This document shows positions 2,641 through 32,000 of a DNA stretch of 32,000 bases, in pieces. Origin of the DNA: Pirellulaceae bacterium (GTDB lineage: Bacteria > Planctomycetota > Planctomycetia > Pirellulales > Pirellulaceae); the NCBI GenBank assembly GCA_026004775.1, contig BPJU01000019.1, positions 85,471-117,470 of the forward strand, given 5' to 3'. Each line of letters opens with the position of its first letter. Position 1 is the stretch's first letter. The translations under genes and the position numbers were made by a program. The notes beneath the pieces were generated by a model, which did no database searches, had not been told where the DNA came from, and saw only the letters and a program-made list of their open reading frames with translations.

Positions 2641-2698
2641 GTTTCAGCAAGACCGCGTTTCGTGTCAGGTCGGCCAGCCGGTGGCAGCCACCGCCCGG

Positions 2699-4340: not shown

Positions 4341-4417
4341 GCTTATTTCCTTGTACACCGCCGGGGCGGCGTGCGCTTGCGCGGCACCTGCCCGCCGATG
4401 GTAAAAGGGTGAATATA

Positions 4418-5092: not shown

Positions 5093-5179
5093 AGAACCGG
5101 TAAACCGCCCGTACCGGCACGGCCTTCAGGCTACCCGCTATCGGAATGACCATAGGCTGACGGTACGTCGTTTTCACAA

Positions 5180-5208
5180 TTTTTACAACTCAATGTGCTA
5201 AAAATCAA
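5180..5208 (-). promoter_or_regulatory. Candidate sigma70-like promoter for the sufR-nuoB-sufCBD cluster
   Basis: This is the only AT-rich patch upstream of sufR. The minus strand reads TTGATT, a 17-nt spacer, then TAAAAA. It overlaps an imperfect palindrome CACAAT-N11-AATGTG (5176-5198) that could be an operator. Confidence 0.25.
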
Positions 5209-5470
5209 CCCCCCTCGGGAGTCGGGCACTGAGAACATGTCGTAAGTTACGCCCGAGTCCATAGTTAGTGCGTTATAAATTCCGGTGCTCGCGGCTTGGT
5301 CCCGAACGCAACCCAGAGAAGGATCTTGCAGGCAATCCGCGCCAAACCGGCACGGCTTTTCCCCAAGCCGTTCTCTCGGCACGGCTGAGAAACCGGAGCA
5401 AGCACCGGCAGCTATTTTTACCGATCGGCCACTTGAAACCAGCCGATGAACCGCGGCGCACCGTAAACTA

Positions 5471-5499
5471 TTGACACGGCCAAGCTTATTCTGTAAAAG
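5471..5499 (+). promoter_or_regulatory. Candidate sigma70-like promoter upstream of the symporter gene
   Basis: TTGACA (5471-5476), a 17-nt spacer, then TAAAAG (5494-5499). It would give a ~300-nt leader. Confidence 0.25.
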
Positions 5500-5792
5500 C
5501 CGCCAACGCTGCTGGCGAGCCTTGCGGCCGAACAGCGCAGGCGTCGCCTGCGCGGAGAAACCCTCGTGACAGCTACCCCCTTGAACGGACGCGTGGGCTG
5601 GGATGACTCGACAAGTGGAGGTTACCCTTGGGGTGGATGCCCTCCGTTTCGCCTTTATGGCCGTGTGACGGCTAGGACCGGTTGACGGCTATGATAAAAA
5701 GGACGCAAAGGAATTCGGTTGTTCGCGGCTTGTCGCCGGATGGCCGTCGGGAGTCTCGTGGAAGGTAGGGTGTCGTATCCGGCGAGAACGGG

Positions 5793-16162: not shown

Positions 16163-16182
16163 GTTGCTTTGCCTGACTTACT

Positions 16183-16247
16183 GCCTATCCGAAAACCGCC
16201 CTCGGTCCGCTTTGTCGATAGGCCCGCGAGCCGGTTTTCGGATAGGC
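16183..16247. repeat. 16-bp perfect inverted repeat (GCCTATCCGAAAACCG / CGGTTTTCGGATAGGC) with a 33-nt spacer, 20 nt after the isomerase stop
   Basis: Arms at 16183-16198 and 16232-16247, read directly. No U-tract follows, so it is not a canonical intrinsic terminator. Confidence 0.8.
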
Positions 16248-16331
16248 TATTAGCATCGATACGAGTATGTTCTTCCGATACTACATGAGTTTTGGCTCGA
16301 ACTGGTTTTCGGATAGTCTCTTAGCATCGAT
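16233..16331. repeat. Two 28-bp direct repeats GGTTTTCGGATAG(G/T)CT(A/C)TTAGCATCGAT, spaced 71 bp start to start
   Basis: Copies at 16233-16260 and 16304-16331 with 2 mismatches. The first copy overlaps the right arm of the inverted repeat above. Confidence 0.8.
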
Positions 16332-16766: not shown

Positions 16767-16987
16767 CCGCGTAACCGTTCACGGTTGAATTCGAGGGTCG
16801 TTCGGTGCCTCACCATTGAAAGTGCGGAACACTTGCGTGTTCCGCATACGGAAGGTAGACGCTTCGCGAGGATTTTTTCAATGCGGAAGTCTTACGGCGG
16901 AACGCTGGCGCGTTCCGCCTTGCGACTTCCGCTACCCCCTAAACCAATATCGTTTTCTTTATTTGCCAACCGTGAACGGTTACCGCG
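16767..16987. repeat. ~220-bp hairpin-rich element bounded by 17-bp inverted repeats (GTAACCGTTCACGGTTG / CAACCGTGAACGGTTAC); possible MITE or structured RNA
   Basis: Terminal repeats at 16771-16787 and 16967-16983. The interior has a 10-bp stem TGCGGAACAC/GTGTTCCGCA (16823-16846) and a two-tier 19-bp hairpin GCGGAAGTC..GGCGGAACGC..GCGTTCCGCC..GACTTCCGC (16883-16932). Confidence 0.6.
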
Positions 16988-16991: not shown

Positions 16992-18075
16992 TTACCTGCC
17001 ATGGCCATGCTCTGTTTTCGTGTTCTCTAACAGTTGCAATTCTGCCCCCGGTTCTTTCACCGTCGGCAGGCTGCCTTCGAGTTCTTCGGGCAGCGTCTCG
17101 ACGAGGCAGGTTTCCCACTCGGCAACGCCAATAGGTTTATGCACATCGCGCAGAGCGTACTCCACCACGAGCCGATCCTTGCCCTTGCAGAGTAAAAGCC
17201 CGATGGTGGGTTTGTCGTCGGGGTGGCGCATGAGGTCATCAACCGCCGAAAGATACAAGTTCATCTGTCCGACATAGGCTGGATCGAAAGGTCCAGCTTT
17301 CAGTTCCACCACAAAGCACCGTAATTTGAGATGGTAGAAGAGCAGGTCCACATAGAAGTCCTGATCGCCGACTTTTAAAAAATACCTTTCGCCCGGCGAA
17401 CGCAAACCCAGCGCCACGTTGCAAGAGAAATCGCCGGACGTGATTCACCAGCGCCTGTTCCGCCTCGCGCTCGCGACGCGGTTCAGCGGTGCCGAGGAAG
17501 TCGAAGAGGTAAGGGTCCTTGAACACCTGCGCTGCCATGTCGGAGTCCGTTGGAGGAAGCGTGGCAGGAAAGTTGGTGACGGCTTTGCCCTGCCGCTCGT
17601 CGATCCGCCGCTCGATTTGCATCACGAGCACATTGCGGCTCCAGCCTTTCTCGCGCACCTTGCGGGCGTACCAGAGGCGAGCCTCTGGGTCGGCAACTTT
17701 GTTGAGCAAAACACAGTTGTGGAACCAGGGGATTTGTGCAGCAACCTGCTGCACAATTTGTCGGTTGGGCCAGGCGGCGGCAAAAGCGCGCATGTACTTG
17801 AGGTTGCGCGGTGAAAGCCCCTGCATTTCGGGGGACTCCCGCCGCAGGTCCGCCGAAAGCCGGTCAACGACCTTGACGCCCCAGCCTTCGCGCTGTTGGC
17901 GCTCGAGGATGGCGCAGCCGATGTCCCATTACAACCGTACCATCGCAGCGTTGGCGGTCATGACCGCCCGCAGGCACACTTGCCGAATGCGCTGCTTGAG
18001 TTCGGCAAGCAGGTCTGCGTAATCGGCAGGCAGATCGGTAAGCGCTCGGCGTAGCTGGGATACGAGCCTGCGCTT
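16992..18075 (-). pseudogene. yhcG: YhcG/DUF1016-family PD-(D/E)XK nuclease pseudogene (one in-frame stop, one frameshift)
   Basis: Three pieces. ADYADLLAELKQRIRQVCLRAVMTANAAMVRL*WDIGCAILERQQREGWG has a TAA at 17929-17931. MQGLSPRNLKYMRAFAAAW...FLLQRGAGFAFAGR is ORF 17239..17826. After a shift in the T4A6 run near 17372-17385 comes YFLKVGDQDFYVDLLFYHLKLRCFVVELK...GQMNLYL...PTIGLLLC (ORF 16992..17417). Confidence 0.8.
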
Positions 18076-18193
18076 TATCCAAAGTTGAGTTTCTCGGCTT
18101 TGGCTTTCTTGGTTTACCCGCCATAGCCTGGTTCCTCCAGGTTTTTCCAGATGGCCGCATCCAGCCAGCGGATCTCGCCCTGTTGCTGGCGAG

Positions 18194-19120
18194 TCATGGC
18201 CGTGTCTCCTCGGGTTCTTCGAACAGGCGCAGATAAGGCTCGAAACGGAATCGCCGGTTACGGGCGTAGCCCGTAATCTCTCCGAGCAATCCGATGTTCA
18301 CCAGGCGGTGAAAAAGGTTGTTGGCAGCAGGCGTTGTAATGTTCAACGAGTCGCGCACGGTGGCCACCGTGACAATCGGAGAGTCGAAGAGTCTGTCCAT
18401 GACGCGATGTCCGTTCGCCGCTGCTCGCTCGAGCTTTTCGGTGACCTTGGCTCGGTACTCTTCGCGCGTGCGCAGGATCGCTGCTGTTGTCTCAGTCGCC
18501 GGCGGGCTCACTTCGGCAACAGCGCGAAGGAAAAAGTCCAGCCATCCTTCCCAATCTCCCTCGTCGCGCACAGTTTGAAGCCGGACGTAGTATTCGGCGC
18601 GATGCCGTTTGAAGTAGTACGAAAGGCAGACGACCGGCCGGGATAGAAGACGCTTTTCTACTAGCAGAACGGCAATCAGCAACCGCCCGATACTACCGCT
18701 TCCGTCCAGAAACGGGTGAATGGTTTCGAATTGTGCATGCGCCGACCCGACGCGGATGAGGACCGGTACGTCATCCTGTGCATGGAAAAAGCGATCCAGG
18801 TCTTGAAGCGATCGCGGCACCTCATGAGGCGGAGGTGGCACAAATGTAGCCTCAGCCAGTGTGCAGCCGGCGGACCGACCCAGTTCTGGGTGTTGCGCAG
18901 TTGTCCGGGTGTGAAATGTTCCCCGCGAACCCCGCGCATCAGCTCAGCATGGATTTCGCGGATCAGCCGCACCGACACCGGGAGCGTCGCGAGGCGGCCA
19001 AGACTATGATTCATCGCGCGGACATAGTTGATGACTTCATTTACATCATCGGGTGTGTCGGGATCGAAGAGCCGGGCTTCGGCAGATATTAGGTTTTGAA
19101 AGGAACTTTGCGTTAGGGTG
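18194..19120 (-). pseudogene. fic: Fic/DOC-family pseudogene (frameshifted, degenerate active-site motif, N-terminus lost)
   Basis: VINYVRAMNHSLGRL..IREIHAELMRGVRGEHFTPGQLRNTQNWVG, then a 1-nt shift near 18870-18880 into ..TLAEATFVPPPPHEV..HAQFETIHPFLDGSGSIGRLL. The motif HPFLDGSGSIGR has lost the N and first R of canonical HxFx(D/E)GNGRxxR. Confidence 0.75.
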
Positions 19121-19535
19121 TCGGTAACCAAATCGCGCTTTTGGACTTTCGCGTAGGCCCGGATCAGCTCTTGGGCGTCCGTGATGTCCGTAATCTCCAC
19201 CAGCCAGGCCAGGGGCTCGATGGCCTCCCGCTGGCAGAACCAGTACCGCAACGGCACATCAAAGCCGCGGACCTCGTGGTCCTCCTCGAGCCAGGACTCG
19301 AACAGCCTCTTCGTCACATCCGAGTCGTCCGGGCACCCCTCGTCCCGCCACTGATCCACGGCCTCCCGGATCTTGGGGACCAGAAGCAGCTTGCTCGGCC
19401 GCCGCCCCTCGGCTACCTGCCAACCCGTTGGGCTACTGTCGTCCTGGACGAGGTGCTGAGTCGGTTTCTCCCAGGGCCTGCGTCTCGGGGACTTTGGGGA
19501 GGTCCTTGTCGTAGTGGATGATCGCCTTCTGCCAT
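19121..19535 (-). pseudogene. N-terminal remnant of a type III-like restriction helicase (Res) gene, multiply frameshifted and fused to the fic remnant
   Basis: KLLLVPKIREAVDQWRDEGCPDDSDVTKRLFESWL..LRYWFCQREAIEPLAWLVEI matches my recollection of the N-terminal region of type III Res-like DEAD/DEAH proteins. An ATG at 19535 lies 2 nt after the GATase stop, but reaching this segment needs at least two frame changes (AIIHYDKDLPKVPETQALGE is in a third frame). No helicase motifs follow. Confidence 0.5.
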
Positions 19536-19537
19536 CG

Positions 19538-20323
19538 CTAATCCATCTCCACACACTCGGTTTCCAGGTCACTTGAAACCACCAGGAGGTGTCTCAGCGG
19601 AATTTCCACCCATTCCTCCTGGGTCAACTTTTCTGAACAAACTAGAATAGCCCTCTCGTTATTGAGAGATTTGCTCTCCAGCAGGGCTCTGACCTCCTTT
19701 GACTCGAACCTGATCGGCCTCGGCTCACGCGGATCGCGATTCAGCCAGTAGAGACTGTAGTAGTCGTAATTTCGTGACGCTTCGCGGTATCCATAAAGTC
19801 TTTCTCCATTGCTCAATATGAAGTTGAGGCCTGAATGTTGGAGATTCCGAACCTCTCTCAGCGCTACCTTGATGCCCTTCACTGCGTCTCCCTCGCGTTC
19901 GATGTTCTGCAGGATCCAGTGGAAATACACCTCCGAGTCTGTTTTACCGCGAATGGCAGCATGATGCTCTTCGGATAGGAGCCCCAGGAGGTCTTCCCTG
20001 TTCACACTGCCGTTGTGCGCGAAGAGCCACCTATCCCATTGGAACGGGTGACAGTTCTCCATGGATTTGGCCCCGGTCGTGCCCTTGCGGACGTGAGCCA
20101 CGAAGATCAGTGACCTGGCCTCAGCCGCCCTCCGAACAAACTCTTTACTTTTTCCGGCCTTTTGGGGCTCTTTCACTACCACAGGTTGGCCATCCTCATA
20201 CCACCCAAGGCCCCATCCGTCTGGGTTCCACTCGCTCATGCCCATCAACGTATGGGGCCCCTCAACCAACGAGAACCGCAAATCAACTTCTTTGTTTGCC
20301 ATGATTCCCAGGAGTCTGCACAT
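19538..20323 (-). CDS. Class II (Ntn-type) glutamine amidotransferase, YafJ-like
   Basis: Intact 261-aa ORF starting MCRLLG (nucleophile Cys2), with DGWGLGWY, AHVRKGT and FAHNGS. It is visibly more AT-rich than the core genome. Confidence 0.75.
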   Translation of the reverse strand: MCRLLGIMANKEVDLRFSLVEGPHTLMGMSEWNPDGWGLGWYEDGQPVVVKEPQKAGKSKEFVRRAAEARSLIFVAHVRKGTTGAKSMENCHPFQWDRWLFAHNGSVNREDLLGLLSEEHHAAIRGKTDSEVYFHWILQNIEREGDAVKGIKVALREVRNLQHSGLNFILSNGERLYGYREASRNYDYYSLYWLNRDPREPRPIRFESKEVRALLESKSLNNERAILVCSEKLTQEEWVEIPLRHLLVVSSDLETECVEMD

Positions 20324-20328
20324 GGTTG

Positions 20329-20718
20329 CTATACCTCCACGTCGTACGCCTGCGAGATGTCGTTGCCGAAGATGTCGAACACCTTCACCACGATCCGATA
20401 CCGGCCCGGCTTATCGTAGGTGTGCGGGTCGGAGACCAGGGGAAGCTTGCGGTTCCTGCGGGTGCGATAGGCCATCCAGCCCTGCATGAAGGTGTGGTTG
20501 TGAAAGTTCCAGACAATCGCCCAGTAGTCAATGTAGTCCGACCGCTTCTTGATCTTCGAGCGAATGTCCTCGGGTGTGAGCTCATCCAGGTTGGACGAGG
20601 CGAAGTCCTTAAGTTCCACCTGAGTGGTGCGTTTCTTCGCTTTCTTGCTGCACTTTCTGACAGAAGCTAACACGTATTGTGCCAGACCATTTCCGCTGCA
20701 CTGTGCATAGATGGGCAC
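20329..20718 (-). pseudogene. C-terminal remnant of a Mod-type N4/N6 DNA methyltransferase
   Basis: The tail DYIDYWAIVWNF...W...R...HTYDKPGRYRIVVKVFDIFGNDISQAYDVEV resembles the conserved C-terminal module I recall from type III-like methylases. No catalytic motifs are present. A further protein-like stretch (FRDFDIGNNFFPKVTEEPFFVKIHFAE) continues upstream to about 20860 in another frame. Confidence 0.5.
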
Positions 20719-20776
20719 AGGTTGCCAGCCCTCTCGGCAAAATGGATCTTCACAAAAAACGGCTCTTCCGTAACCT

Positions 20777-21115
20777 TTGGGAAAAAGTTGTTTCCAATGT
20801 CAAAGTCACGGAAGAGCCCATATGCACGACGCACAAATTACATGGAAGCCACCCGAGGAACGGGCCGAATGGGCAGCTTGGCTATCGGCTGCTTTACACG
20901 GACCTCACCGATGGCGACTCCCCGTCATCCTAGTCGATATGTTATTCGCTCACGGACGTCGTACCGTTTCGTCCTGGCTTCGGGGCGCAAACGTCAGCGA
21001 CGATTACCAGGACTACTATTACTTTATAGCCAAAGTAGAACGAAACGCCAAGCGGGTTTGTAGCCGCTTGGGTAGAGTGGACCCATCCTTTGGACCAAGG
21101 GAAGCGGGTTCTTAG
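20777..21115 (+). mobile_element. N-terminal remnant of a DDE transposase (IS701/IS4-like), truncated
   Basis: WRLPVILVDMLFAHGRRTVSSWLRGANVSDDYQDYYYFIAKV resembles the N-terminal region of IS701-like transposases. No DDE domain follows and I found no terminal inverted repeats. It abuts the truncated mod remnant. Confidence 0.45.
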
Positions 21116-21220: not shown

Positions 21221-22129
21221 TTAGGATTCGCCTCGCGTTGCCGCCGGCGGGCTTTCTGCCCGAAGCATGATGAGGTCTTGGCCGAGACCATCGGGCAGCA
21301 CGTCAAGGCGTCCGGAGGCGGCGATCAGTTGAGCCGGAGGAATATGGCTAAGGCGAAACGGGAAAAGGCTGGGGGCGTTGAGGAGTGCGCTTAAGCGCAA
21401 ACTTCCGGTCGAGTGCGCGCGCAGGTGAGCTTCAGCCAGCCATGCCGCGAGCTTCGCATTATCTATGGCTAGCGACAGACCCGCAAAGTAGGTACCTTTA
21501 GGGACTGGTGCATCACCCGCCTTGCCGTCATCAAGAACCCCCCAGTCCACCATAGCGCGTAGAACACGCCGAACAGCATCTTTGACCGTCGGCCGTTCAC
21601 CGTATTGCTCCATGAGGCGGCGATGTACCTGCTTTGGAGTTACCGCTCCTTGAAGCCTGAGCAGCCGCCCCACATGGGCTGCTACGGACCACCAGAACGG
21701 GTAAACTGCCATCGTCATGCCCCAGTGGACCGCGATATGGTATTCACGAGGCAGGTATAAGAGAAGCTCGAGACCATCGTGCTGAAGGGGACGGAGTTCG
21801 CGTGGCGGCCGGACCCAGATCTTCATCAGGATGGTGATCACCTTCTCCCGATTGCCGCGAATGCGTCTTTGTGTCGCGCGCCGTGCGTCATGCGTCGATC
21901 TTGGCTCGGGACCTTCTGACGCTTGAGGCTTGACGCTCGACGCCCGGACGCCTCTATCGACCGACAGTTTGTCTTCCAGCAACTCTTGCAGGGCGTTGTA
22001 GATTGACGCCTCGTCGTTTCCGGCAAGCACCAGGTTGGCCGTTCTCTGTAGCCATTCAAGACGGACCCGCTGGCTAAAACCGATCTGGGAAAACCGTCGG
22101 TCGGTCGCGCGTCGTGTGTCGTGCGTCAT
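21221..22129 (-). CDS. brxA: BREX-associated protein in the brxA position of a type 3 BREX locus (BrxA/DUF1819-like; identity tentative)
   Basis: Its ATG overlaps the pglZ stop (ATGA at 22126-22129). The call rests on position plus loose similarity to the DUF1819 layout (HWGMTMAVYPFWWSV; GERPTVKDAVRRVLRAMVDWGVL). It contains an internal repeat of its own N-terminal 12 aa. Confidence 0.45.
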   Translation of the reverse strand: MTHDTRRATDRRFSQIGFSQRVRLEWLQRTANLVLAGNDEASIYNALQELLEDKLSVDRGVRASSVKPQASEGPEPRSTHDARRATQRRIRGNREKVITILMKIWVRPPRELRPLQHDGLELLLYLPREYHIAVHWGMTMAVYPFWWSVAAHVGRLLRLQGAVTPKQVHRRLMEQYGERPTVKDAVRRVLRAMVDWGVLDDGKAGDAPVPKGTYFAGLSLAIDNAKLAAWLAEAHLRAHSTGSLRLSALLNAPSLFPFRLSHIPPAQLIAASGRLDVLPDGLGQDLIMLRAESPPAATRGES

Positions 22130-24243
22130 GACGGGTCTCCTCCGGATGAATTGCGACGCGAGACGTTGGACGCCGGACGCGGTGACGCTCTTTCGATCTG
22201 GACAAGAGGCACGATCAGCTCCTCGACACTAATTCCACCATGACCGACGAGGGTTTTACCCTTCCGCACGAAAGCAGCCCGGTTCGGAGCGATGAGGACG
22301 AGGTAGTCGTCTGGGAGACCCACCGAGGGCCACTCCAAGGACTGCGGGAATCGCGCCTTGATTTTAGCCCTGAGCCTGGGATCGGAGTAAACACGCACGC
22401 GCTCGCCGCGCAGGTCCGCAATTGCCCCTTCGGCAGGCCGCCCTGCCCCTGTCGCCTCGATGTTGCCGTGGTCCGAGGCAAGGTAAACCTCGAAACCGCG
22501 GTTGTGGAGCAGGCGGATGAGGTCCCGCATGAATCCCTGACGGGCCCATTGCCGCACCTGGTTATGCATCCCCGCCGAACCCAACTCCATGCCGTGCATG
22601 ATCCGGTCGACCTTGTCGATGACCAATCCGACGACACGTAGCTTGGGCCGGGAGAGTAACTCGGAGACCTCGTCCATGTCCCCATCGCCCAGCCCCTTGC
22701 CGTAAGCCACCTCATGCAGCGTCAGTCCCTGATCGACCCAGAACTGCGTCCAAAGGGCCGGCTCCTTGTCAGTGGTATGGATACTCGCCGGGAAGTAGAT
22801 CGGCGGCTTGCCGGCAAAGGCGGCCTGCCGGGAAACCGAGGTGATAGTGGGTATCCAGGCGAAGACAGCGTTCTCACGGAACAGCATGCTCGAATCTTGC
22901 TCCTTAAGTACGTCGCGCAAGGCGATCCATTGATCCAGGGCGAGGCCATCGACCATCAGGAAAGCCAGCTTTCCTGCTGGCGGCCGCGATGAGGACTGAG
23001 TGCCGAGCAACGAGTGGGCAAAAAATCGCGGGAGGTGGTGGAGCATAACCGGATTGGTGGCCGGTAAATTGATGAGGCTTGCATAGTGTTGAAGCACCCA
23101 TTCCTGGAAGCGCGAATCTACCAAGCAGGTGATACCCTCAATGCGCTGTCTGTATCCTTCTCCCTCTCCACTCAGCACCCAGTCCTCAGTACTCAGCACT
23201 TTCAGTTGTGCCCAACGGTAGGCGAAATGGAGCCACTCGCCATGACGCGCCCCTACCGTAGGGATCGTCTTCTCGATGGAATCCAGCAGCCCCTCCATGC
23301 GGCGGCGGCGGTCCTCCGTGGCGGAGACTTGGATGCCGTAAGCCACCCAGGTCTTGGCGAGCGCTTGCGATTGCTCGTGAGGAACCGGCTGGAGCAGGCC
23401 TTCGAGGAAAAGGTTGTCGATGTAAACGCGGACATCGGGGTGGTCAAACGGTAGGTGCGGGGTGCGTAGTGCGTGGTGCGTTTCGGCCTCGCGCATCTCG
23501 CACTTCGCACCGAGCACCTCGGCTGCGAAGCGGTCGAGGAACACCGGCCAGCGCTCCTGCAGGAACGCAAAGAATGCTTCCGCGTCCGGAATGATGGCTT
23601 CCAGAGGCCAATCCTCGAACAGGCCGTTTTGACGAAGCACCTGGATTAAGCGCTCATCGAGCATGTCCGGGATTCGTTGTCCGCTGTAATGGCGGCGCAG
23701 CAAGACCCGCAGCAGGTCCGATGGCTGCTTGATGAGTTCCGGTGCGATCTCGAACACATGACGGAGGACGAAATCCTTCGTAGCGTTGTCGCCGAGCTGC
23801 CCCGGCGCGTGCTTCGCCTGCGCATCGAACAAGGCGTCGAGACAGGAGCGGTCGAGTGCCGCTACCACGGGATAACTGAGGTTCGGGAAGAGATCGCCCA
23901 GGTTGAACGAGAGCTTGCGGCCAGCCTGCAAGAGGTCGTAGGGCAAGGCATCGAGATCGCTCGAAGGCGATCTCAGCACCACTACCAGGTCGGTTTCCTC
24001 GCCACGGTCCCAGCGGGAGCGGAACTTGGATTCGTAGGCATAGCGAAAGGCGACATGATCCTCGAACGGGATCAGCTCAAAACCCCGTTCCCGGATCCCT
24101 TCCAGAACACCTTCTTCAAGCAGCAGGCCATCCGGATCCGCGGCCAGGGTAAGCCGGGCGACACCCGCTGTGAACTCCTTCAGTATCTCCGCCCGCCAGG
24201 AATTGAACCACGGATCAACACGGATCGACTCGGATGAATTCAT
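22126..24243 (-). CDS. pglZ: BREX alkaline-phosphatase-superfamily protein PglZ
   Basis: FLMVDGLALDQW, IPTITSVSRQAAFAG, DKVDRIMHG, LASDHGN, GHGGISVEELIVPL. I prefer ATG 24243 (MNSSESIRVDPWF), which overlaps the GxxExxY stop as ATGA. The track start 24261 is 6 codons upstream. Confidence 0.9.
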   Translation of the reverse strand: MNSSESIRVDPWFNSWRAEILKEFTAGVARLTLAADPDGLLLEEGVLEGIRERGFELIPFEDHVAFRYAYESKFRSRWDRGEETDLVVVLRSPSSDLDALPYDLLQAGRKLSFNLGDLFPNLSYPVVAALDRSCLDALFDAQAKHAPGQLGDNATKDFVLRHVFEIAPELIKQPSDLLRVLLRRHYSGQRIPDMLDERLIQVLRQNGLFEDWPLEAIIPDAEAFFAFLQERWPVFLDRFAAEVLGAKCEMREAETHHALRTPHLPFDHPDVRVYIDNLFLEGLLQPVPHEQSQALAKTWVAYGIQVSATEDRRRRMEGLLDSIEKTIPTVGARHGEWLHFAYRWAQLKVLSTEDWVLSGEGEGYRQRIEGITCLVDSRFQEWVLQHYASLINLPATNPVMLHHLPRFFAHSLLGTQSSSRPPAGKLAFLMVDGLALDQWIALRDVLKEQDSSMLFRENAVFAWIPTITSVSRQAAFAGKPPIYFPASIHTTDKEPALWTQFWVDQGLTLHEVAYGKGLGDGDMDEVSELLSRPKLRVVGLVIDKVDRIMHGMELGSAGMHNQVRQWARQGFMRDLIRLLHNRGFEVYLASDHGNIEATGAGRPAEGAIADLRGERVRVYSDPRLRAKIKARFPQSLEWPSVGLPDDYLVLIAPNRAAFVRKGKTLVGHGGISVEELIVPLVQIERASPRPASNVSRRNSSGGDPS
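23171..23198. repeat. 4 x 7-nt heptamer block (CTCAGCA CCCAGTC CTCAGTA CTCAGCA) inside pglZ
   Basis: Read directly. It encodes part of KVLSTEDWVLSGE. Confidence 0.7.
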
Positions 24244-24632
24244 AAGACAACCCTTTTCCATTCGAGTCGTGACCGGCGAAAGTTCAAGATTAGGCCCAGG
24301 GTTAGTCCTGCGATCTTGAGGTAGTTGAGCATCTGGCCGATCTCATGGTCTGTGATTCTCTCGATCACCTTCGTATCGACGACGATCTTGTCGAAGACAA
24401 TCAGGTCGGGAACATACTCCCCGACCTTCACACCTTTGTAGACGACATCGAAGCGAGGTTGCTGCCGGTAGGCAATTCCCTGTCGTTGGAATTCGACAAC
24501 TAAGGCATTCTCATACGGTTTTTCCAGCAACCCATGCCCAAGTGTATTCAAGACTTCCATTGCACAGCCGATGATACGTCGTGTTTCATCTTCATAAATC
24601 AATCTGTGTCTATCCGTGTTCATCCGGGGTTC
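24205..24632. mobile_element. 428-bp inverted-repeat-bounded unit carrying the GxxExxY gene
   Basis: Left end, plus strand 24205-24240: GAACCACGGATCAACACGGATCGACTCGGATGAATT. Right end, minus strand of 24601-24632: GAACCCCGGATGAACACGGATAGACACAGATT. 22 of the first 25 nt are identical. Both end types recur in the 81-bp element at 26243-26323. Confidence 0.6.
24240..24623 (-). CDS. GxxExxY-family protein (PD-(D/E)XK-like fold)
   Basis: 127 aa. IIGCAMEVLNTLGHGLLEKPYENALVVEF..VYKG..VGEYVPDLIVFDKIVVDTK..QMLNYLKIAGLTLGLILNF. ATGA overlaps occur at both ends, with the brxHII stop and the pglZ start. Confidence 0.85.
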   Translation of the reverse strand: MNTDRHRLIYEDETRRIIGCAMEVLNTLGHGLLEKPYENALVVEFQRQGIAYRQQPRFDVVYKGVKVGEYVPDLIVFDKIVVDTKVIERITDHEIGQMLNYLKIAGLTLGLILNFRRSRLEWKRVVL

Positions 24633-27600
24633 CCCTCCACACGGACAAGAAGCAGAGGCGCCATTTCCGGCAAAATCAGCGACCTGCGCTCCAGTTCCGC
24701 CCGAAATCGCTCTTCCTCTTGTTCCAAGAGACTCAGGCGATAGTTACGGACCTGGGGCAGTCCAACGCGCTCGATGGCCCTGCGTCGCGCAGCGAAGGCA
24801 TATTCGCCCTTCTCACGCTCCCGAGCAAGACGCTCCCGGTGGGCCTGCACCAGCTCGTCGTAAACCGTCTTCCCCTGTCGCTCGGCCGCGGCCCGGAGTC
24901 GCTGGAAGGCTTGATGCGACGTCTCGATGTCCAGATGCGCCAGGATCGTGGGTTCCATTACAAGCAGAAGATCCCAGATGTGCCGCGCAGTCGGCGCAAA
25001 CACCCGATCGTCGTCGGCCAAGAACAAAGGCATGATACGCCTCCGGCCGGTCTCGGGTCCCGGGTCCGGAGTCACGAGTCCGTCAGGACGACTCACGAAC
25101 TGCGACTCGTGACTCATGACCGAAATCTGCCAGAGCGACCAGAAACCCGCGATCCCTGGAGCAAGGCCAGAAAGGGTGATGACCGGGACCGGTTGTCCTG
25201 GGGCAAAGGGAGGAAGGCGCATGGCCAGCCCACGCACCCTGGGATCTTCCAGCGTCACGTGGCGGCTCAACGGCTTCTCTTCAGCCTCCTTGCTGGTGAA
25301 GACGACATTGGTCAGTCGCTCGCCATCGGGCCAGGTGAGATCCCAGGCGCCGTTCTTTCTCTCAGCCTTGCCGCCGTGAGCCTTAAGGTAGCTTACCGTC
25401 ATGCGCTCCACCCAATGCGGGAGCGGGTGGGCCAGCAGCCGCTGGGCCTCACGAGGGTCCAAGTCCTCGGTCGAGCCAAGCACGGATGCGCTCTGGCGAG
25501 ACTCCCTCGCCTGTTCCTGAATGCTTTTCACCACGTCATCGATTTTCGTCCCTACCGCTTCGGGATGGAGAATGGCTTCCACATAAAGATCATCGAAGAG
25601 CTGGCCGGCCTGGGCAGAGTCAAGCACGTCACCGGTCTTATCAATGCCGAGCTGCTCGAAGATGACCGCCAATTTCTCCTCCAGCACCTCCAGGACACGA
25701 TGCTCGACTGACTCCTCGAACACAAAGTTGATGGCACGTACGGTGTGGGTCTGGCCGATGCGGTCTACCCGCCCGATGCGTTGTTCCAGGCGCATTGGGT
25801 TCCAGGGGATGTCGTAATTGATGACCACATGGCAGAACTGCAGGTTGAGACCCTCACCACCGGCGTCCGTTGAGATGAGGATGCGGGCATCCTTGGCAAA
25901 AGCGTCCTGGACCCGCTTGCGCTCCTCCATGTCCATCGAGCCGTTGAGGCACACCACCTCGAAGCCTCGCTCGGTCAGGAACTCGTACAGCATCTGCTGG
26001 GTCGGCACGAACTCGGTGAACACCAGCACCTTGAGAGCCGGGTCGCCTTCCTCGGCCTGGAGGCGGTAGATCCAGTCCAGGAGCGCTTCGGCCTTGGCGT
26101 CCGGGCCGTGGCTTTCGCAGCGCTTCGCCGCTTCCAGGAGCAGCTTCACCTCGGCCCGTTCATTCTTTAGTCCCCCCAAGCGGGTAGTCAGCAGGGCTTC
26201 GATCTGCTCCTGCCCTTCAAGATCGGCCCATTCATCGGGAGAGAACCACGGATGAACACCGATGGACTCGGTTTCTTCGTTCAGAAGTTTCATCTGTGTG
26301 TATTCGTGTCCATCCGTGGTTCTTTCTTCGAGCGCTTCGAGGCGCCGCTCCAGGGTGGTGCGGATGGCGCGGGTGCTGGAGACCACCAGGCGCTGCATCA
26401 GGATCATGAGGAATCCGATGTAATGGCGATTTTCAGCGATGGCCTGGTTGTAGCCCTCGCGCACGTATTCGGTGACCGCCTCGTAGAGAAGCCGTTGATC
26501 CCGGTGGCGATCCTCCCAGGAGATCGGTGCAAGCTCCGTGCGCCGGGGTTTAAAAAGGGAATTGCCCTGTGCGTCGATGGCGCGGCGCTTCTCCGTGCGG
26601 ATGACGTAGGGCTGTACCCGCTCCTTCGAAATGCTCTCTTCATCGGGAAACGCTTCCGGGTCTAGCAAAGAAAGGAGGCGCCTAAAATGATCCGTCTTCC
26701 CCTGGTGCGGTGTGGCGGATAGCAACAGCAAGTAGGGCGCGGCCTCGGCCAGCCCCTGGCCGAGCTTGTAGCGGGCCACCTGGTCCGTGCTGCCACCCAA
26801 GCGATGTGCCTCATCCACGATGACCAGGTCCCAGCCGGCGGAAATCAGGTCCTCGAAGCGCTCCCAAGCCGCGCCGCCAGCATTTGATGGGGGCTTGGCG
26901 GAATCCATGGAAACAACGACCTGGTCAAAGGCTCTAAAGGGGTTTGCATCGGAGGTGCGGAGTGCTGAGTGCTGAGCTATGAGAGCTGAGTTATCGCCTT
27001 GCCGCTCAGTCCTCAGTCCTCGTTCCTCATTCCTGTGGATTGCCGAGATGCGTTTGAAGGTTTTGTAGTCCTCCGACATGATCGGATGAAACTGCTCATG
27101 GAAGTGCATCGCCATCTCGGCAATCCACTGAGTCACCAGGCCTTTCGGGGCGATGACCAGCGTCCGCTTCACCAGGCCCCGGAGCTTGAGCTCCCGCATG
27201 ATGAGACCTGCCTCGATGGTCTTGCCGAGCCCCACCTCGTCCGCCAAGAGATAGCGCACGCGGTCACCGGAGACGACCCTCGAGAGCGCTCGAATCTGAT
27301 GCGGCAGCGGGATGACGGACGATTCGATGGGCGCAAGCAGGACGTCCTGAGTCAGCGCATCGGCGACCCGCGCCACCGCGGCGAGATAAGCGATCCCGTC
27401 CACGGTGCCGACACTTGCCTCCTGCACGGGCCGGAGGCGCGTGGCGGGCAACCGCACGACGGTATCCTTGCCCGGCAGCCAGACACGGCAAACGGTCTCG
27501 CCCCAGAGCGTCTGGGTCTCGATGACCCGGCAGAGCTCCCCGTGCTCGGGGCTGTAGTACCACTCGCCTACCACCAGATTAGCAATTTCATCCTTTCTGT

Positions 27601-27640
27601 ACGATCGCCTTGATGGCGCTGAACCATTCACGAATCTCAT
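24620..27640 (-). CDS. brxHII: BREX type 3 SNF2-family helicase BrxHII
   Basis: 1006 aa. LADEVGLGKTIEAG (motif I), VIVDEAHRL (motif II), LLLSATPHQGK, and a C-terminal helicase lobe (LVFTEF, STDAGGEGLNLQ, YDIPWNP, QRIGRVDRIGQ). The track ATG 27640 overlaps the upstream gene by 53 nt; CTG 27577 or GTG 27574 are alternative starts. Confidence 0.88.
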   Translation of the reverse strand: MRFVNGSAPSRRSYRKDEIANLVVGEWYYSPEHGELCRVIETQTLWGETVCRVWLPGKDTVVRLPATRLRPVQEASVGTVDGIAYLAAVARVADALTQDVLLAPIESSVIPLPHQIRALSRVVSGDRVRYLLADEVGLGKTIEAGLIMRELKLRGLVKRTLVIAPKGLVTQWIAEMAMHFHEQFHPIMSEDYKTFKRISAIHRNEERGLRTERQGDNSALIAQHSALRTSDANPFRAFDQVVVSMDSAKPPSNAGGAAWERFEDLISAGWDLVIVDEAHRLGGSTDQVARYKLGQGLAEAAPYLLLLSATPHQGKTDHFRRLLSLLDPEAFPDEESISKERVQPYVIRTEKRRAIDAQGNSLFKPRRTELAPISWEDRHRDQRLLYEAVTEYVREGYNQAIAENRHYIGFLMILMQRLVVSSTRAIRTTLERRLEALEERTTDGHEYTQMKLLNEETESIGVHPWFSPDEWADLEGQEQIEALLTTRLGGLKNERAEVKLLLEAAKRCESHGPDAKAEALLDWIYRLQAEEGDPALKVLVFTEFVPTQQMLYEFLTERGFEVVCLNGSMDMEERKRVQDAFAKDARILISTDAGGEGLNLQFCHVVINYDIPWNPMRLEQRIGRVDRIGQTHTVRAINFVFEESVEHRVLEVLEEKLAVIFEQLGIDKTGDVLDSAQAGQLFDDLYVEAILHPEAVGTKIDDVVKSIQEQARESRQSASVLGSTEDLDPREAQRLLAHPLPHWVERMTVSYLKAHGGKAERKNGAWDLTWPDGERLTNVVFTSKEAEEKPLSRHVTLEDPRVRGLAMRLPPFAPGQPVPVITLSGLAPGIAGFWSLWQISVMSHESQFVSRPDGLVTPDPGPETGRRRIMPLFLADDDRVFAPTARHIWDLLLVMEPTILAHLDIETSHQAFQRLRAAAERQGKTVYDELVQAHRERLAREREKGEYAFAARRRAIERVGLPQVRNYRLSLLEQEEERFRAELERRSLILPEMAPLLLVRVEGNPG
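26243..26323. mobile_element. 81-bp cargo-less palindromic derivative (MITE-like) of the GxxExxY unit, in frame within brxHII
   Basis: 13-bp perfect termini AGAACCACGGATG (26242-26254) and CATCCGTGGTTCT (26311-26323). The left half matches the 24205 end at 27/30 and the right half matches the 24632 end at 27/31. It is translated as RTTDGHEYTQMKLLNEETESIGVHPWF. Confidence 0.65.
26963..27032. repeat. Inverted pair of 4 x 7-nt heptamer blocks inside brxHII
   Basis: TGCTGAG TGCTGAG CTATGAG AGCTGAG (26963-26990), a 14-nt spacer, then CTCAGTC CTCAGTC CTCGTTC CTCATTC (27005-27032). It encodes HRNEERGLRTERQGDNSALIAQHSALRT. Confidence 0.75.
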
Positions 27641-29450
27641 CTAAAGCGCCACGTTCCCGGAGCCGATCCAACGTCATTGCGGGTGCTACCTCGTTGTTTA
27701 GTCGCTGCTTTGCACGCCCCTCCTTCTTTTTCCGTTTCTCGTCGCCCAACTGCTCCCATGGCGCCGACCCTTCCTCGCGCTCATGGATAGCTCTCGCCAC
27801 CGCCTCAGGGACGTCATTCTCGTCTGATACCTTTACTTCCACACCGAGCACCTCATTGATTGCATCGGGATGCAGATAATTCTCGGCTTCGCGCTTCCTT
27901 GTTAAGAACGCCTTCGACCCATCACCGCGTTTGTTCACCTCATTCACATGACTCTGATACTTTGGAGGGGAATCGGTATCGCGGTCATATATGTGAATCT
28001 CCGGGCGATTCAAGGGCCTGAGGTACTGGCTGTTCACCCAGTCCCGCAATGTGCTCCCGCCGAGCGGCAAGAACACGACTTCTGGTGTATCATCTGGCTC
28101 AAAACCAACATCGTCCCCTGCGGCCAGTAAGACCATCGCCATGCTCTTCAAAAACGCCACATCATTGGGACCCTCGACGCACACGAACACACGCACTCGG
28201 TTATCCGGAATCACACCAAGATCATCGGCTATCCGCTTGAGCACTTCATCGGTGCCCTCCTCTACCACCCGCGTGTTATCGTGCGCACACCGGACATACC
28301 GCAGGGCATCCACAGGTATCATCTCGGCCAGACCGGGAACGTGCGTCGTGATCACAACCTGACATCCGTCGGCCGAAGCAAGGTCTTTGAGCGCTTCAAT
28401 CACCATGCGTTGGTTGGATGGGTGTTGTGATGTTTCCGGTTCTTCAATCGCATAGATGATGTTCGATCTGTTCTCCTCCGTGCGTCGGCGCTCCGCTTCG
28501 GCGCGGAAGAACCCAAGAAGGATTAGCCGGCGAACGCCACTTCCCCGCTTATTGACAGGAATCTGATCGTCTGTCGTAAGCGCCAGTTTGAATAAAGAGT
28601 CCCATTTAGGATCAGAGCGGAATGTTGGACTTAGTTCCTTTGATAAGTTTGGGTCTAAGTCTTTGAGTTTTTCCAACGTCCGTCTAGCAACATCCAAAGC
28701 AGCATCCCGAATCCTATTTTGAATATTCTGCAACTCGTTTGCCAGCTCAGAAATCGCTTGTCGGATGGCAAGCTTCATGGGATCTTGGACTTCGCTGTCC
28801 TCGTCCGTGCTTGGACGGTCTGCGCGGAAGAGAGCAAAAATCGGTAAGTAGTGTTGGATCTGGTCCCAGATTTTTTTAGCGTCCTCCTTATTCAGTTCAA
28901 TTTCTGTCAGCGACAGTTGCAGATTCTCACAGGAATCCCAGAGCGCCTTGCGAATGGACGGGTTGCTCCTCAGATCGACGCCGTCAGTGTCAACACTCTT
29001 TTCCTGAAGTCGCTTCTTGAGGTCCGAATTCTTGAGCTGGAGTAGATCTGCATAGCCATCAGCGGTTGGATGTTTTGCGAACGCCAGAACACGTGGCTTA
29101 GGTGACTTCACGGAACAATCGAAGACCTTGTGTATCTCCAGATCACCATCTTCGTTTAAGAGGTACTCTTCCCTCAGATTCGTTGTTGAAGTAGCATCCA
29201 ACGTAAGGGAATCGGGCAACTCATCAAAGACGCAGCCAATGCGAACTTCCTTGTCCTCTGCGTAGACGCACAGGTCCGATGTATCGAACTTTACGAGCGG
29301 AGAATCAAAGAAGATGCCCAGTGCATCGAGTATCGTAGATTTACCGATGTCGTTTCGCCCTATGAGAGCTGTTAGGTCTGGATGAACCGGAATCCGGACT
29401 TCGCCCCGGTAGCCTCTGAAATTCCGTAATACCAATGTTTTGAGACGCAT
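27588..29450 (-). CDS. OLD-family ATP-dependent nuclease-like protein (ABC-type ATPase plus C-terminal TOPRIM-like domain)
   Basis: 620 aa. Walker A GRNDIGKST; NKRGSGVRRLILL; Walker B-like IIYAIEEPETSQHP. The C-terminal part has VFVCVEGPNDVAFL, LPLGGS, IYDRDTD and KREAENYL (TOPRIM-like Glu and DxD). GGAGGAGGGATAAGGTC precedes the ATG. It is more AT-rich than its neighbours. Confidence 0.75.
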   Translation of the reverse strand: MRLKTLVLRNFRGYRGEVRIPVHPDLTALIGRNDIGKSTILDALGIFFDSPLVKFDTSDLCVYAEDKEVRIGCVFDELPDSLTLDATSTTNLREEYLLNEDGDLEIHKVFDCSVKSPKPRVLAFAKHPTADGYADLLQLKNSDLKKRLQEKSVDTDGVDLRSNPSIRKALWDSCENLQLSLTEIELNKEDAKKIWDQIQHYLPIFALFRADRPSTDEDSEVQDPMKLAIRQAISELANELQNIQNRIRDAALDVARRTLEKLKDLDPNLSKELSPTFRSDPKWDSLFKLALTTDDQIPVNKRGSGVRRLILLGFFRAEAERRRTEENRSNIIYAIEEPETSQHPSNQRMVIEALKDLASADGCQVVITTHVPGLAEMIPVDALRYVRCAHDNTRVVEEGTDEVLKRIADDLGVIPDNRVRVFVCVEGPNDVAFLKSMAMVLLAAGDDVGFEPDDTPEVVFLPLGGSTLRDWVNSQYLRPLNRPEIHIYDRDTDSPPKYQSHVNEVNKRGDGSKAFLTRKREAENYLHPDAINEVLGVEVKVSDENDVPEAVARAIHEREEGSAPWEQLGDEKRKKKEGRAKQRLNNEVAPAMTLDRLRERGALDEIREWFSAIKAIVQKG

Positions 29451-29454
29451 GACC

Positions 29455-29645
29455 TTATCCCTCCTCCCCAGAACGGGTGAGCGCCTGGTCGTACCACATC
29501 AGGAGCTTGGGGTCCTCCTGGAGGACGTTCTCGGGGAGCTTGCGCGCCACGGCGATGATGGTCGCGTAGTCCCGCTCCTGCCATGCCTTCTTGAAGCCGG
29601 CGCGGACGGCCTCGAGGCGGAACACCTTCAGGCGCCTCTGCGTTG
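29455..29645 (-). pseudogene. Detached C-terminal ~60 codons of pglXI, in another reading frame
   Basis: Only the last part of track ORF 29455..30039 looks protein-like: RRLKVFRLEAVRAGFKKAWQERDYATIIAVARKLPENVLQEDPKLLMWYDQALTRSGEEG. It follows directly after the pglXI frame ends at EFEEYRAVQRRGA*. A single restored nucleotide near 29640-29660 would join the two. Confidence 0.6.
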
Positions 29646-32000
29646 GACTGCGCGGTACTCCTCGAACTCGCGCAGCAGGGCCCGCTCGCGGAGCTTCTCC
29701 AGGTCGCCGGCCTTGTTCGGGTCCGGGACGTACCAGCGGTCTTTTGCGCGAGCGATGAGGACTGAGGACTGAGTGCTGAGTCGGCCGTTCCCCTCCGCCG
29801 CACGGCCGGAAGCCAGCTCTTCCTGGATGATTTTGCGGAGGTCGGCGCTTTGCTTCATCCAGGAGACAAGTTGGGCTGGAATCGGGCCCTTGCCGTCGTA
29901 GCGGAGGAAGTTCTGCTCCAAAAGTTCCATGAGCTCGAGCGGCTTTTCGTGCTTCTGCCAGCCGCCGATCTCCTTGAGAAACTGCGGATGAAGCTCCTGG
30001 AAGGTCTGGGGCTTTCGGGTGAGCTGCTGCTTGAGCCACTGGATGGCGGAAGATTCATCGGTGACCCAGATCTCCAACTGTAGGACTTCCTTGCTTGTCA
30101 TGCGTTTCTTGTCGTATTCCGCCACCTGCTCGGGCAGGAAGTACATCCCGTCGCGCTCCGGGAAGCGCTGGGCAAGCCCGGCGTAGAACTCCGCCGCGGA
30201 GAGCGGCACCGTCACGCCACGCTGGACATGGAAAGCCACCATGCGGTCGAAGAGCAGGTAGTTCTGTCGCTCCGCGATGACCTCCGCCTTGCCGTCCTTG
30301 GAGACGAACACCGGCAGTTGCTTCAGGTGCGTGCGAACGAAGTCCCAGACGCCTTCCTCGGTGCCAGCGGTCAGCTTGAAGCGTTCCTCAAGACCGCTAT
30401 TGGGTTTGTAGGCGGAGATGACCAGGTCTTGTTTGACCGCCGTGCTCGTCACCTGACGGTAGGATCCCTGTCGCTTGTCAAGAGTGCGCACATCTGCCAC
30501 CACGAACCCGGCAGCCAGCATCGCTTCCTGAATGGCGTTCCAGACGGCGTTGCGAGAATTATGGAATACCACAGTCATCCACCGGCCCGGTTTGAGTACC
30601 CTGAAATACTCTGCGAAACATTGCTGCATCAGGTGCTGGTACTCGTTCAAACCCTTCTTCTTGGCCTTGTCCACAATGGCTTCCGGAGTGGCGTTGGTCA
30701 CCACCCGGTGCCAGGACTCCACCAGGAAGTTCAGGTCGGCATAATAGATGTTCTCACCAAAAGGCGGGTCGGTGAAAATGTAGTCGATGGTGTTGTCGGC
30801 CAGGTCGAAGTGCCCGGCCGTCGCGGTGGTAATCGAGACTAAGTGACTCTTTGTACTCAGTTCCGCGAAGGTCTTTACAAGCCGCTTGAGTTTCCCCTCA
30901 ACAACATACCAGGGCGATACCTCTGAGATTTGCGACGGCACATAATATACAAGGGGCATAGCGCCGTTGCTTTGCGAGTAGCGGTGCGGGCCATATCTAT
31001 TCTGAATGTTCAAGCTTGTTATCGCCTGCTCAACCAAAAACAACAACATGTGCCGGATACGCTTGTCCGGCCATGCCTGGGCCTTGCGCCACAACGCCGC
31101 CAGGGCGTGGGCGGCGCGGGGGAGAAAGAAGTGATGGACGTGGGTGAATCCTTTCGGTTCGATTCGGGAACCGTGATACATCTGGGCAGTTGGAAAGCGA
31201 TTTACCGGAACATCTGCGGGAAAGGGCAGCATCGCAATTCGTTCGATAATCTCACGGTCATATTCATCAAGATGCTTTTCACATCGCTGCTTGCCTACAC
31301 TATAACTAATCAGTACAGGTACGAATTTGACGTGCTTCCAGGGTCTTCCTGAAGCGGGATCGACGCGGGATTCAAACACACGATCCAGGTTTCTTTTGTC
31401 AAGCTCTGCCCCGCAATGCGGGCAAGCGAAGGTTTCCCTCACCTTATTGGTCTCCGGGTCCAGGGCCTGCTCCAGAAACACCACCTCGCCCGCGCAGTCC
31501 GGGCAAGTGAACATCTCGCTCCAGACCGTATATTCGATACGCCCCTTGCTCTTACCGTCGGTATGCAGGGTTTCGTACATCCAGCCGATTTCCTGCTCTA
31601 CCTCGTCGAGGATCTGGCGCGCCGCGCGTGCAAATTCATCCACATCGAAGGACAGATTGTAGTTGGCAGCGATGAAGGTGGCGGCAGGCGCGAGATCGCC
31701 CAGCACCACACAGCGCGGCCCCCACTTAGGTTTATCCCGGCCTTCCTTTTCCCATAAGGCTTCGAGATTGCGCTTGTAGCTCTCCGGCGCGGAGCCGCAC
31801 CATTGTGCTGCTACGCCTGTCATACCGGAGCCGCAGAAGCCGTCCAGAACGACGTCTCCGGGCTCGGTGTAATGGAGGATGGATGGTACGATGGCCAAAT
31901 GCGGCACCTTGGTGTGATAGGAATGAGCCTTGTAGATCGGGTCCGTTTTGCCCACGCTGACATCGACCGCGAACGGCTCCTTGTTGTAAGGCACGTTCGG
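29628..32000 (-). CDS. pglXI: BREX type 3 N6/N4 DNA methyltransferase PglXI (5' end at or beyond the right edge; 3' end truncated by a frameshift)
   Basis: SYHTKVP...GDVVLDGFCGSGMTG (motif I), IDYIFTDPPFGENIYY (motif IV), and a CxxC...CxxC zinc ribbon (FTCPDCAGE...FACPHCGAEL). The track M at 31994 is a GTG and the frame stays open to 32000. Confidence 0.85.
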   Translation of the reverse strand, partial: PNVPYNKEPFAVDVSVGKTDPIYKAHSYHTKVPHLAIVPSILHYTEPGDVVLDGFCGSGMTGVAAQWCGSAPESYKRNLEALWEKEGRDKPKWGPRCVVLGDLAPAATFIAANYNLSFDVDEFARAARQILDEVEQEIGWMYETLHTDGKSKGRIEYTVWSEMFTCPDCAGEVVFLEQALDPETNKVRETFACPHCGAELDKRNLDRVFESRVDPASGRPWKHVKFVPVLISYSVGKQRCEKHLDEYDREIIERIAMLPFPADVPVNRFPTAQMYHGSRIEPKGFTHVHHFFLPRAAHALAALWRKAQAWPDKRIRHMLLFLVEQAITSLNIQNRYGPHRYSQSNGAMPLVYYVPSQISEVSPWYVVEGKLKRLVKTFAELSTKSHLVSITTATAGHFDLADNTIDYIFTDPPFGENIYYADLNFLVESWHRVVTNATPEAIVDKAKKKGLNEYQHLMQQCFAEYFRVLKPGRWMTVVFHNSRNAVWNAIQEAMLAAGFVVADVRTLDKRQGSYRQVTSTAVKQDLVISAYKPNSGLEERFKLTAGTEEGVWDFVRTHLKQLPVFVSKDGKAEVIAERQNYLLFDRMVAFHVQRGVTVPLSAAEFYAGLAQRFPERDGMYFLPEQVAEYDKKRMTSKEVLQLEIWVTDESSAIQWLKQQLTRKPQTFQELHPQFLKEIGGWQKHEKPLELMELLEQNFLRYDGKGPIPAQLVSWMKQSADLRKIIQEELASGRAAEGNGRLSTQSSVLIARAKDRWYVPDPNKAGDLEKLRERALLREFEEYRAVQRRGA
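29753..29780. repeat. 4 x 7-nt heptamer block (CGATGAG GACTGAG GACTGAG TGCTGAG) inside pglXI
   Basis: Read directly. It encodes part of GRLSTQSSVLIA. Confidence 0.7.

Follow-up and report, generated by a model that had tools for sequence, protein, structure and literature searches.

An intact class II glutamine amidotransferase gene between mod and res remnants: probably an optional, mobile accessory, possibly of defence

Introduction

Does an intact gene that lies within a few nucleotides of two decayed restriction genes belong to the system that they once formed, or did it settle between them independently? The question is raised by a class II glutamine amidotransferase (GATase) gene on contig BPJU01000019.1 of a Pirellulaceae bacterium, of which a stretch of 32,000 nucleotides, referred to here as the window, was analysed. 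On the minus strand of the window, the GATase gene is flanked by remnants of mod and res, the methyltransferase and helicase-nuclease genes of a type III restriction-modification (R-M) system. A sequence-only reading of this DNA had regarded the GATase as a built-in third gene and not a passenger, on the grounds that operon-tight spacing implies an ancestral unit. The comparisons presented below point instead to a gene whose anatomy is very probably that of an optional, mobile, stand-alone accessory hydrolase. Comparison of sequences leaves a defence role for the GATase clade evenly poised, and we give about an even chance to the explanation that seems best overall, namely that the protein is a mobile gamma-glutamyl amide hydrolase and a candidate defence accessory.

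The locus

The mod stop codon (20329) is separated by 5 nt from the GATase gene, which extends from an ATG at 20323 to a stop at 19538 and whose product begins with MCRLLG; the ATG of res (19535) follows after a further 2 nt. A GGAGG motif resembling a ribosome-binding site is located within the end of mod and precedes the GATase ATG. The order of the three genes, both spacers, and the intactness of the GATase were as originally described, and the flanking fragments both yielded the corresponding Mod and Res profile matches (Table 1).

The mod remnant is 47–56% identical to the C-termini of intact Mod proteins and is truncated by an IS701-like insertion-sequence remnant, copies of which (73–88% identical, four of them >400 nt) occur on other contigs of genome G000. 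The assignment to mod holds for approximately 20329–20643, whereas 20644–21071 is the IS701-like repeat, so that the upper part of the span given in the earlier reading does not belong to mod. The res remnant is 38–46% identical to intact Res proteins, with its first segment, in another frame, being 67% identical to the Res of locus L171. Its reading frame shifts twice in the initial ~25 codons and then stays open for ~115 codons, after which it is fused in frame with the mid-portion of a Fic gene at ~19110–19126. The first frame change consists of one extra base at 19529. A contig from a public run (X1), which over 17985–20179 differs by a single letter and a single gap, does not have this base, whose presence in the window reflects either strain variation or an assembly error; X1 may derive from the source sample itself or from a close strain. 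The description of res as multiply frameshifted thus fits the window, although the first change is absent from the near-identical X1 contig and only the second is certain.

Recurrence of the arrangement

The GATase loci compared were the best 80 of each scan with the GATase alignment, or 160 in total. A related mod end directly upstream and a res start directly downstream of the GATase were found in 12 of the 160, with seven of these loci being wholly intact and showing gaps of −10 to 1 nt (that is, gaps or overlaps of 1–10 nt). The expectation that homologues would be linked to methylase and helicase genes, and that intact versions might exist elsewhere, was therefore confirmed. With GATases grouped at 80% identity into lineages, the arrangement occurs in eight lineages, down to ~66% GATase identity. 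The seven intact loci encode Mod proteins with DPPF and FxGSG motifs and Res proteins with TGSGKT, DEAH, and PD..ExK motifs, with which they qualify as type III R-M systems. L038 and L043 have the GATase flanked by mod and res genes that belong to an unrelated type III family. A search for mod or res remnants beside other GATases revealed only L022, a second relic in which the GATase is accompanied by short mod and res ends.

Like known type III R-M systems (the BPTD_3080 family NF046055 and PADLOC MTase_III PDLC03633), the intact loci have Mod upstream of Res with typical motifs. They differ in the addition of an upstream UvrD-PD(D/E)xK gene and the GATase, and the window retains remnants only. 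The intact Res of L116 scored 293 bits against the NF046055 cut-off of 800 and is a relative, not a member, of the BPTD_3080 family. The UvrD-PD(D/E)xK gene (940–952 amino acids) precedes mod in L116, L120, L121, L124, L126, L131, L139, L148, and L057, often after a radC or HNH gene, and is possibly a fourth conserved member of these type III loci. In L139 (9278–13163), res is immediately followed by a defence gene for a Dsr1-like sirtuin, which is divided between two open reading frames (ORFs).

Such recurrence would be expected if the GATase were a dedicated third component of a Mod-GATase-Res system, either a subunit or a PrrC-like guardian that senses or assists the restriction complex. 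The conservation of the layout across the eight lineages, the tight coupling, and the purifying selection described below are consistent with this idea, as is the divergence of GATase and Mod/Res from the window to a similar depth (~40–50%). The accessible part of PMC12707154 provides a precedent in PrrC for guardians embedded in R-M loci. We nevertheless regard a dedicated component as improbable in view of the results that follow.

Optional presence between mod and res

Res was searched for in 1,003 genomes, with matches in 19 of 401, 17 of 301, and 9 of 301, and yielded 49 loci with 1.5-kb flanks. The GATase profile matched just one of the 49, L211, which is the same as the seed locus L052. 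Among close Res relatives (≥44% identical, mod visible, seed excluded), none of five had a GATase; three further close relatives lacked upstream DNA or mod. A low-depth X1 contig that is 86% identical over 19111–19526 passes from the mod end (20328) to the res start with nine letters between them and no GATase. The mod end was visible in 24 Res loci; mod abuts res in 14 of these and is separated from it by >200 nt in 10. These larger gaps are filled by varied other genes, which by their appearance we take to include a PIN toxin-antitoxin pair, GxxExxY, KilA-N, GIY-YIG, and IS200-type genes. The GC content at third codon positions also differs, being 0.65 for the GATase and 0.85 and 0.86 for its flanks.

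Quick trees (LG+G4; 128 and 58 rows, with four GC-rich rows near the window being of odd composition) grouped the window GATase with L022 and with copies from outside restriction loci. The 12 intact-type loci formed a separate, strongly supported GATase clade with its own indels, and the L038 and L043 GATases fell into a third group. A single clade of mod-res GATases was rejected by the approximately unbiased (AU) test (p = 1.7e-91 and 2.7e-55; p = 0.013 with a wider clade). The simplest reading of these trees is that GATases entered the mod-res slot several times independently, although for this Res family one old entry followed by multiple escapes and losses may also account for the data.

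An obligate three-gene Mod-GATase-Res system was rejected on the basis of the five close Res relatives, the 86%-identical contig without a GATase, and the lack of a single clade. The same results, together with the unrelated cargo in the slot and the difference in third-position GC content, speak against the description of the GATase as built-in. Members of the clade occur likewise in BREX, type I, type II/GmrSD, and many non-restriction contexts. Tight spacing indicates co-translation and is no proof of ancestral membership. A dedicated subunit or guardian is less likely because its partners, at least three unrelated Res families as well as HsdR and BREX, offer no single common surface and because the GATase stays conserved after the loss of Mod and Res.

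Decay and conservation

The GATase had been described as the only gene still intact between 16.99 and 21.1 kb, and its neighbours there, the mod and res remnants, the YhcG/DUF1016 and Fic genes, and the IS701-like fragment, were all found to be broken. Intactness had been taken to suggest selection or recent acquisition. With five lesions in ~2,740 nt of flanking pseudogene, however, the probability of none in 786 nt is 0.24, so that intactness alone carries little of this claim. Given that the lesion count was not significant, evidence for selection was drawn from counts of altered conserved columns, and these did support it. The mod remnant was altered at 11 of 46 conserved columns (0–4 in 13 relatives) and the res remnant at 6 of 37 (0–4 in 12 relatives), compared with 2 of 72 for the window GATase (0–7, median 2, in 59 relatives). 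The difference between the GATase (2/72) and the two remnants together (17/83) was significant (Fisher p = 0.0009). The GATase would thus have been kept while mod and res decayed, or would have arrived or been replaced late.

The ratio of nonsynonymous to synonymous substitution rates (dN/dS) for the window GATase itself was saturated for the nearest relatives with DNA (dS >2 or undefined). In intact type III loci, GATase dN/dS was 0.11–0.56 (nine of ten pairs estimable), with values of 0.07–0.32 for Res and 0.05–0.36 for Mod in the same loci; five pairs from other contexts gave 0.18–0.73. These ratios indicate that the GATase is under purifying selection in intact mod-GATase-res loci.

The amidotransferase protein

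The window GATase matched Pfam GATase_4 with 137.8 bits (cut-off, 23). Its AlphaFold model had a confidence (pLDDT) of 92.5, and the best fold match was EgtC, with a template modelling (TM) score of 0.73. Sequence searches returned 3mdn, 1te5, EgtC, and GlmS. Residues C2, R79, H92-P93, N104-G105, and D129 are present and are invariant or nearly so in sets of 60 and 17 homologues; from knowledge of GlmS and EgtC, we take such residues to be the nucleophile, the oxyanion hole (Asn-Gly), and the glutamate pocket (Arg/Asp). The model and alignments indicate an N-terminal nucleophile (Ntn) fold in which the predicted catalytic and gamma-glutamyl pocket residues are retained.

The protein resembles stand-alone class II GATases and Ntn gamma-glutamyl hydrolases (EgtC, yeast Dug3, and YafJ; PDB 4zfj, 3mdn, and 1te5) in its fold and single domain, and shares with them the N-terminal Cys and the H-x-R, HPF, HNG, and DSE motifs. 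It differs from EgtC, Dug3, and YafJ in a structural identity of only ~20%, in the lack of egt genes, and in the location of its clade in defence islands and cassettes. EgtC itself (TIGR03442) was ruled out as an identity, with a score of 97.7 against 218.65 bits and no egt genes among the neighbours. No defence model in PADLOC-DB 2.0.0 (a 2023 library) matched the window GATase or four homologues, and the ESM Atlas yielded generic GATase_4 clusters only.

The closest proteins share 74% and 70% identity with the window GATase. None of 40 host relatives had a close copy, 19 of them having distant GATases only (best E 1e-24), nor was one found in 400 sampled genomes of another phylum. Phage and viral collections contained no close relative (best identity, 26–31%). 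A phage or plasmid origin was considered and rejected: 91 plasmid and 4 phage records were at most 35% identical among the matches listed (25 of the 91 for plasmids), and a single viral locus was weak. The GATase clade is sparse, horizontally moving, and very patchy in distribution.

Other genomic contexts

For analysis of context, the two nearest ORFs on each side were scanned and de-duplicated by cluster, with Pfam for 268 neighbour proteins from 125 loci of ≥165 bits and with PADLOC for 91 proteins from 39 lower-scoring loci, four of which join clade lineages. In L093 and L094, the order is brxC-pglX-GATase-pglZ with a 4-nt overlap; L093 (3042–6978) has PglX as two genes encoding 640 and 663 amino acids. 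The GATase follows hsdR in L015, L023, L095, and L143, type III res in L108, and a type IIG-like gene in L032. Other neighbours include GmrSD, type II R-M, TIR, ADP-ribosylglycohydrolase, ARPP-1, and YhcG genes. A restriction- or BREX-type gene was present within two ORFs in 24 of 83 clade lineages and in none of 29 distant GATase lineages (Fisher p = 0.0004), and by a stricter hand count a co-oriented restriction or BREX core gene adjoined the GATase in 15 of 83 and none of 29, respectively (p = 0.011), both p values being overstated as a result of nonindependent kin lineages, hand labels, and the use of two libraries. A further 16 clade lineages had other defence- or toxin-antitoxin-like neighbours.

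No metabolic or synthase partner gene recurred among the scanned neighbours. This finding bears on the possibility that the GATase donates ammonia for an additional DNA modification in concert with the methyltransferase. DNA methyltransferase systems are indeed the commonest defence neighbours, but such a donor is highly improbable: an ATP-dependent synthase or ligase does not recur, the type III loci consist of UvrD-PD(D/E)xK, Mod, GATase, and Res only, and the presence of the GATase is optional. Given that there is no recurring synthase partner, the protein probably acts as a hydrolase like EgtC or Dug3 rather than as an ammonia donor.

In one subclade, attC-like sites lie beside the GATase among TIR, PIN, GmrSD, and type II R-M genes. 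A hidden Markov model (HMM) built from 12 hand-picked sites matched 12 of 160 loci and recovered held-out sites to E 1.7e-13; the attC consensus is RYYYAAC ... inner inverted repeat ... GTTRRRY. The profile was used in place of a strict hairpin rule, which found sites in 2 of 25 loci, and the consensus fold supports only the inner 8-bp stem. Neither the window nor any of the 12 type III loci was matched by the HMM. Individual attC-like sites were seen between GATase, TIR, PIN toxin-antitoxin, type II R-M, and HsdR_N genes (L114, 1155–4788; L106, 2045–3897; L014, 1378–2405; L108, 6885–7909), with one in L108 positioned directly after the type III res.

The GATase directly follows an ARPP-1 or ADP-ribosylglycohydrolase gene in L012, L020, L026, L100, and L112, the upstream neighbour in L100 and L112 being an ADP-ribosylglycohydrolase. 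According to the accessible text of PMC5126054, ADP-ribosylglycohydrolase, GGCT, and a class II GATase form a cluster on an archaeal island (PYG1) that also carries an R-M system. The arrangement in these five loci echoes that cluster and hints at a possible link to ADP-ribose conflicts. The PYG1 cluster resembles the window in having a class II GATase in a mobile element.

A rival explanation holds that the GATase is cargo, either metabolic or close to neutral: a hydrolase that recycles gamma-glutamyl compounds (glutamine, glutathione, or an ergothioneine-type intermediate) and spreads as a hitch-hiker by way of insertion-tolerant slots, among them the mod-res junction and cassette arrays, without any part in defence. 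This is possible, if somewhat doubtful. EgtC is the closest solved fold, most clade lineages have no restriction neighbour, the mod-res slot accepts many unrelated genes (10 of the 24 Res loci, with gaps >200 nt), and the GATase outlasts the loss of R-M genes in both the window and L022. A role in the gamma-glutamyl cycle is also proposed for the class II GATase of the archaeal island in the accessible part of PMC5126054. Arguing in the other direction are the lack of a recurring metabolic partner, the very patchy distribution among the 40 host relatives and the 400 genomes of another phylum, and the entry of the clade into several unrelated defence operons with coupled translation, of which the 29 distant lineages provide no instance.

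Proposed function

In the explanation that we favour, stand-alone class II GATases from a mobile clade would have been taken repeatedly into defence loci as optional accessories. Insertion at the present locus would have separated the mod stop from the res start and placed the gene downstream of the ribosome-binding site with which mod ends, so that it was co-translated with the R-M genes. Later, mod would have been cut by the insertion sequence and res by a deletion, with the GATase being kept. By analogy with the family, the initiator Met would be removed, and Cys2 would attack a gamma-glutamyl amide and release glutamate.

As for what such a hydrolase might do, one guess is that it forms an independent second layer of defence by removing the gamma-glutamyl or amide adducts made by phage amide-ligase cassettes; another is that it drains glutamine or a gamma-glutamyl metabolite during infection. 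The full proposal, that an anti-phage or counter-counter-defence Ntn gamma-glutamyl amide hydrolase was recruited independently into operons of type III, type I, and BREX systems and into cassette arrays and there strips phage amide-ligase marks from host defence proteins or metabolites or starves the phage of glutamine, is rather unlikely in this specific form. If true, it would make the GATase a host-side counterpart of the phiEco32-type amidoligase cassette and provide a handle on the target of that cassette. The phiEco32-type phage amidoligase cassette has a class II GATase in a mobile element. No GGCT or amidoligase gene adjoins the window GATase, unlike the situation in PYG1 and in phiEco32-type cassettes.

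Several observations weigh against a mobile defence accessory under selection. A restriction gene is lacking within two ORFs in 59 of the 83 clade lineages, many on short contigs, and in 43 of them other defence- or toxin-antitoxin-like neighbours are lacking as well; some clade GATases occupy stable sites among housekeeping genes. In the comparison with distant GATases, the clade was classed by Pfam and hand labels and the outgroup by PADLOC, and the two sets differ in taxonomy. Location in defence islands or cassettes is also expected of any mobile cargo. A looser grouping that joins the window group to the intact type III clade survived the AU test (p = 0.11). Finally, one type III group had dN/dS values of 0.41–0.56 and a cassette pair a value of 0.73, and the L022 GATase lacks the conserved glycine G36, so that selection is not always strong.

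Inserts in restriction and BREX operons are a known site of backup defences such as PrrC and BrxU. In the accessible part of PMC12707154, PrrC (in EcoprrI) and BrxU are presented as embedded defence genes, and the word "amidotransferase" does not occur there. Like the GATase, both are optional, co-oriented, and tightly spaced inside a restriction operon; they are nucleases with demonstrated anti-phage activity, whereas the GATase is a predicted amide hydrolase associated with many unrelated systems. A cysteine amide hydrolase was not found described as a backup defence. In the accessible part of PMC10853773, a class II GATase beside D5 helicases is suggested to be a cell-wall peptidase. The literature yielded no description of class II GATases in R-M, BREX, or integron defence, although subscription papers and supplements (such as candidate lists from defence screens) could name the family. 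Together with the lack of a PADLOC model, this agrees with the earlier statement that no restriction or defence system with such a GATase had been described, and the association of the clade with defence operons is apparently undescribed. The GATase is a single testable gene of 780 nt, for which Cys2 offers a catalytic-dead control and for which natural pairs of mod-res loci with and without the gene exist. Should it prove to be cargo only, it would cleanly illustrate why membership does not follow from tight spacing in an R-M operon.

Surrounding features

The features adjoining the GATase are listed in Table 1.

Table 1. Features of the window around the GATase gene
Feature	Positions	Strand	Evidence
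IS701-like insertion-sequence remnant	20644–21071	+	DDE_5 E 1e-4, NF049999 E 1.6e-4 (both below cut-off)
Type III Mod methyltransferase, 3' remnant, ~104 codons	20329–20643	−	PADLOC MTase_III (PDLC03633) 511–611/616, E 1e-11
Class II (Ntn) GATase, YafJ/EgtC/DUG3-like, intact, 261 amino acids	19538–20323	−	Pfam GATase_4 above cut-off
Type III Res helicase-nuclease, 5' remnant, ~137 codons	19126–19535	−	NCBIfam NF046055 (BPTD_3080-family Res) 27–135/970, E 2.5e-15
Fic (SoFic-like) pseudogene, 5' end gone, frame change near 18865	18194–19110	−	Pfam Fic/Fic_N, PADLOC SoFic, NF046030 below cut-off
YhcG/DUF1016 nuclease pseudogene with a stop near 17930 and a frame change near 17390	16992–18074	−	DUF1016_N, YhcG_C, PDC-S02

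A short minus-strand reading frame (18114–18196; ORF 18114–18257) resembles at its end the C-terminus of a type I HsdM but has no PADLOC match. Dispersed repeats at 16770–16985 (~215 nt) and 16170–16255 (~80 nt), with dozens of copies in G000, are likely of the miniature inverted-repeat transposable element (MITE) or repetitive extragenic palindromic (REP) type.

A BREX-3 locus lies upstream of the mod-GATase-res remnants, so that the stretch described here appears as the decayed tail of a defence island. It occupies 21221–32000 on the minus strand and contains pglXI, an Old/AriA-like ABC ATPase gene, brxHII, GxxExxY, pglZ-3, and brxA. The locus appears to continue into positions 1–7014 (minus strand) of G000 contig C2, which carry a brxC-like gene encoding 1317 amino acids; by appearance, we take the start of C2 to hold a brxF-like gene and the pglXI NH2-terminus. 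The pglXI reading frame changes at ~29640, about 60 codons before its end, with the tail being found in the ORF 29455–30039, and in X1 contigs single bases are deleted at 29642 and 29650. The joints of X1 contigs skip the ABC ATPase gene (~27535–29470), which marks it as a further optional insert among related BREX loci.

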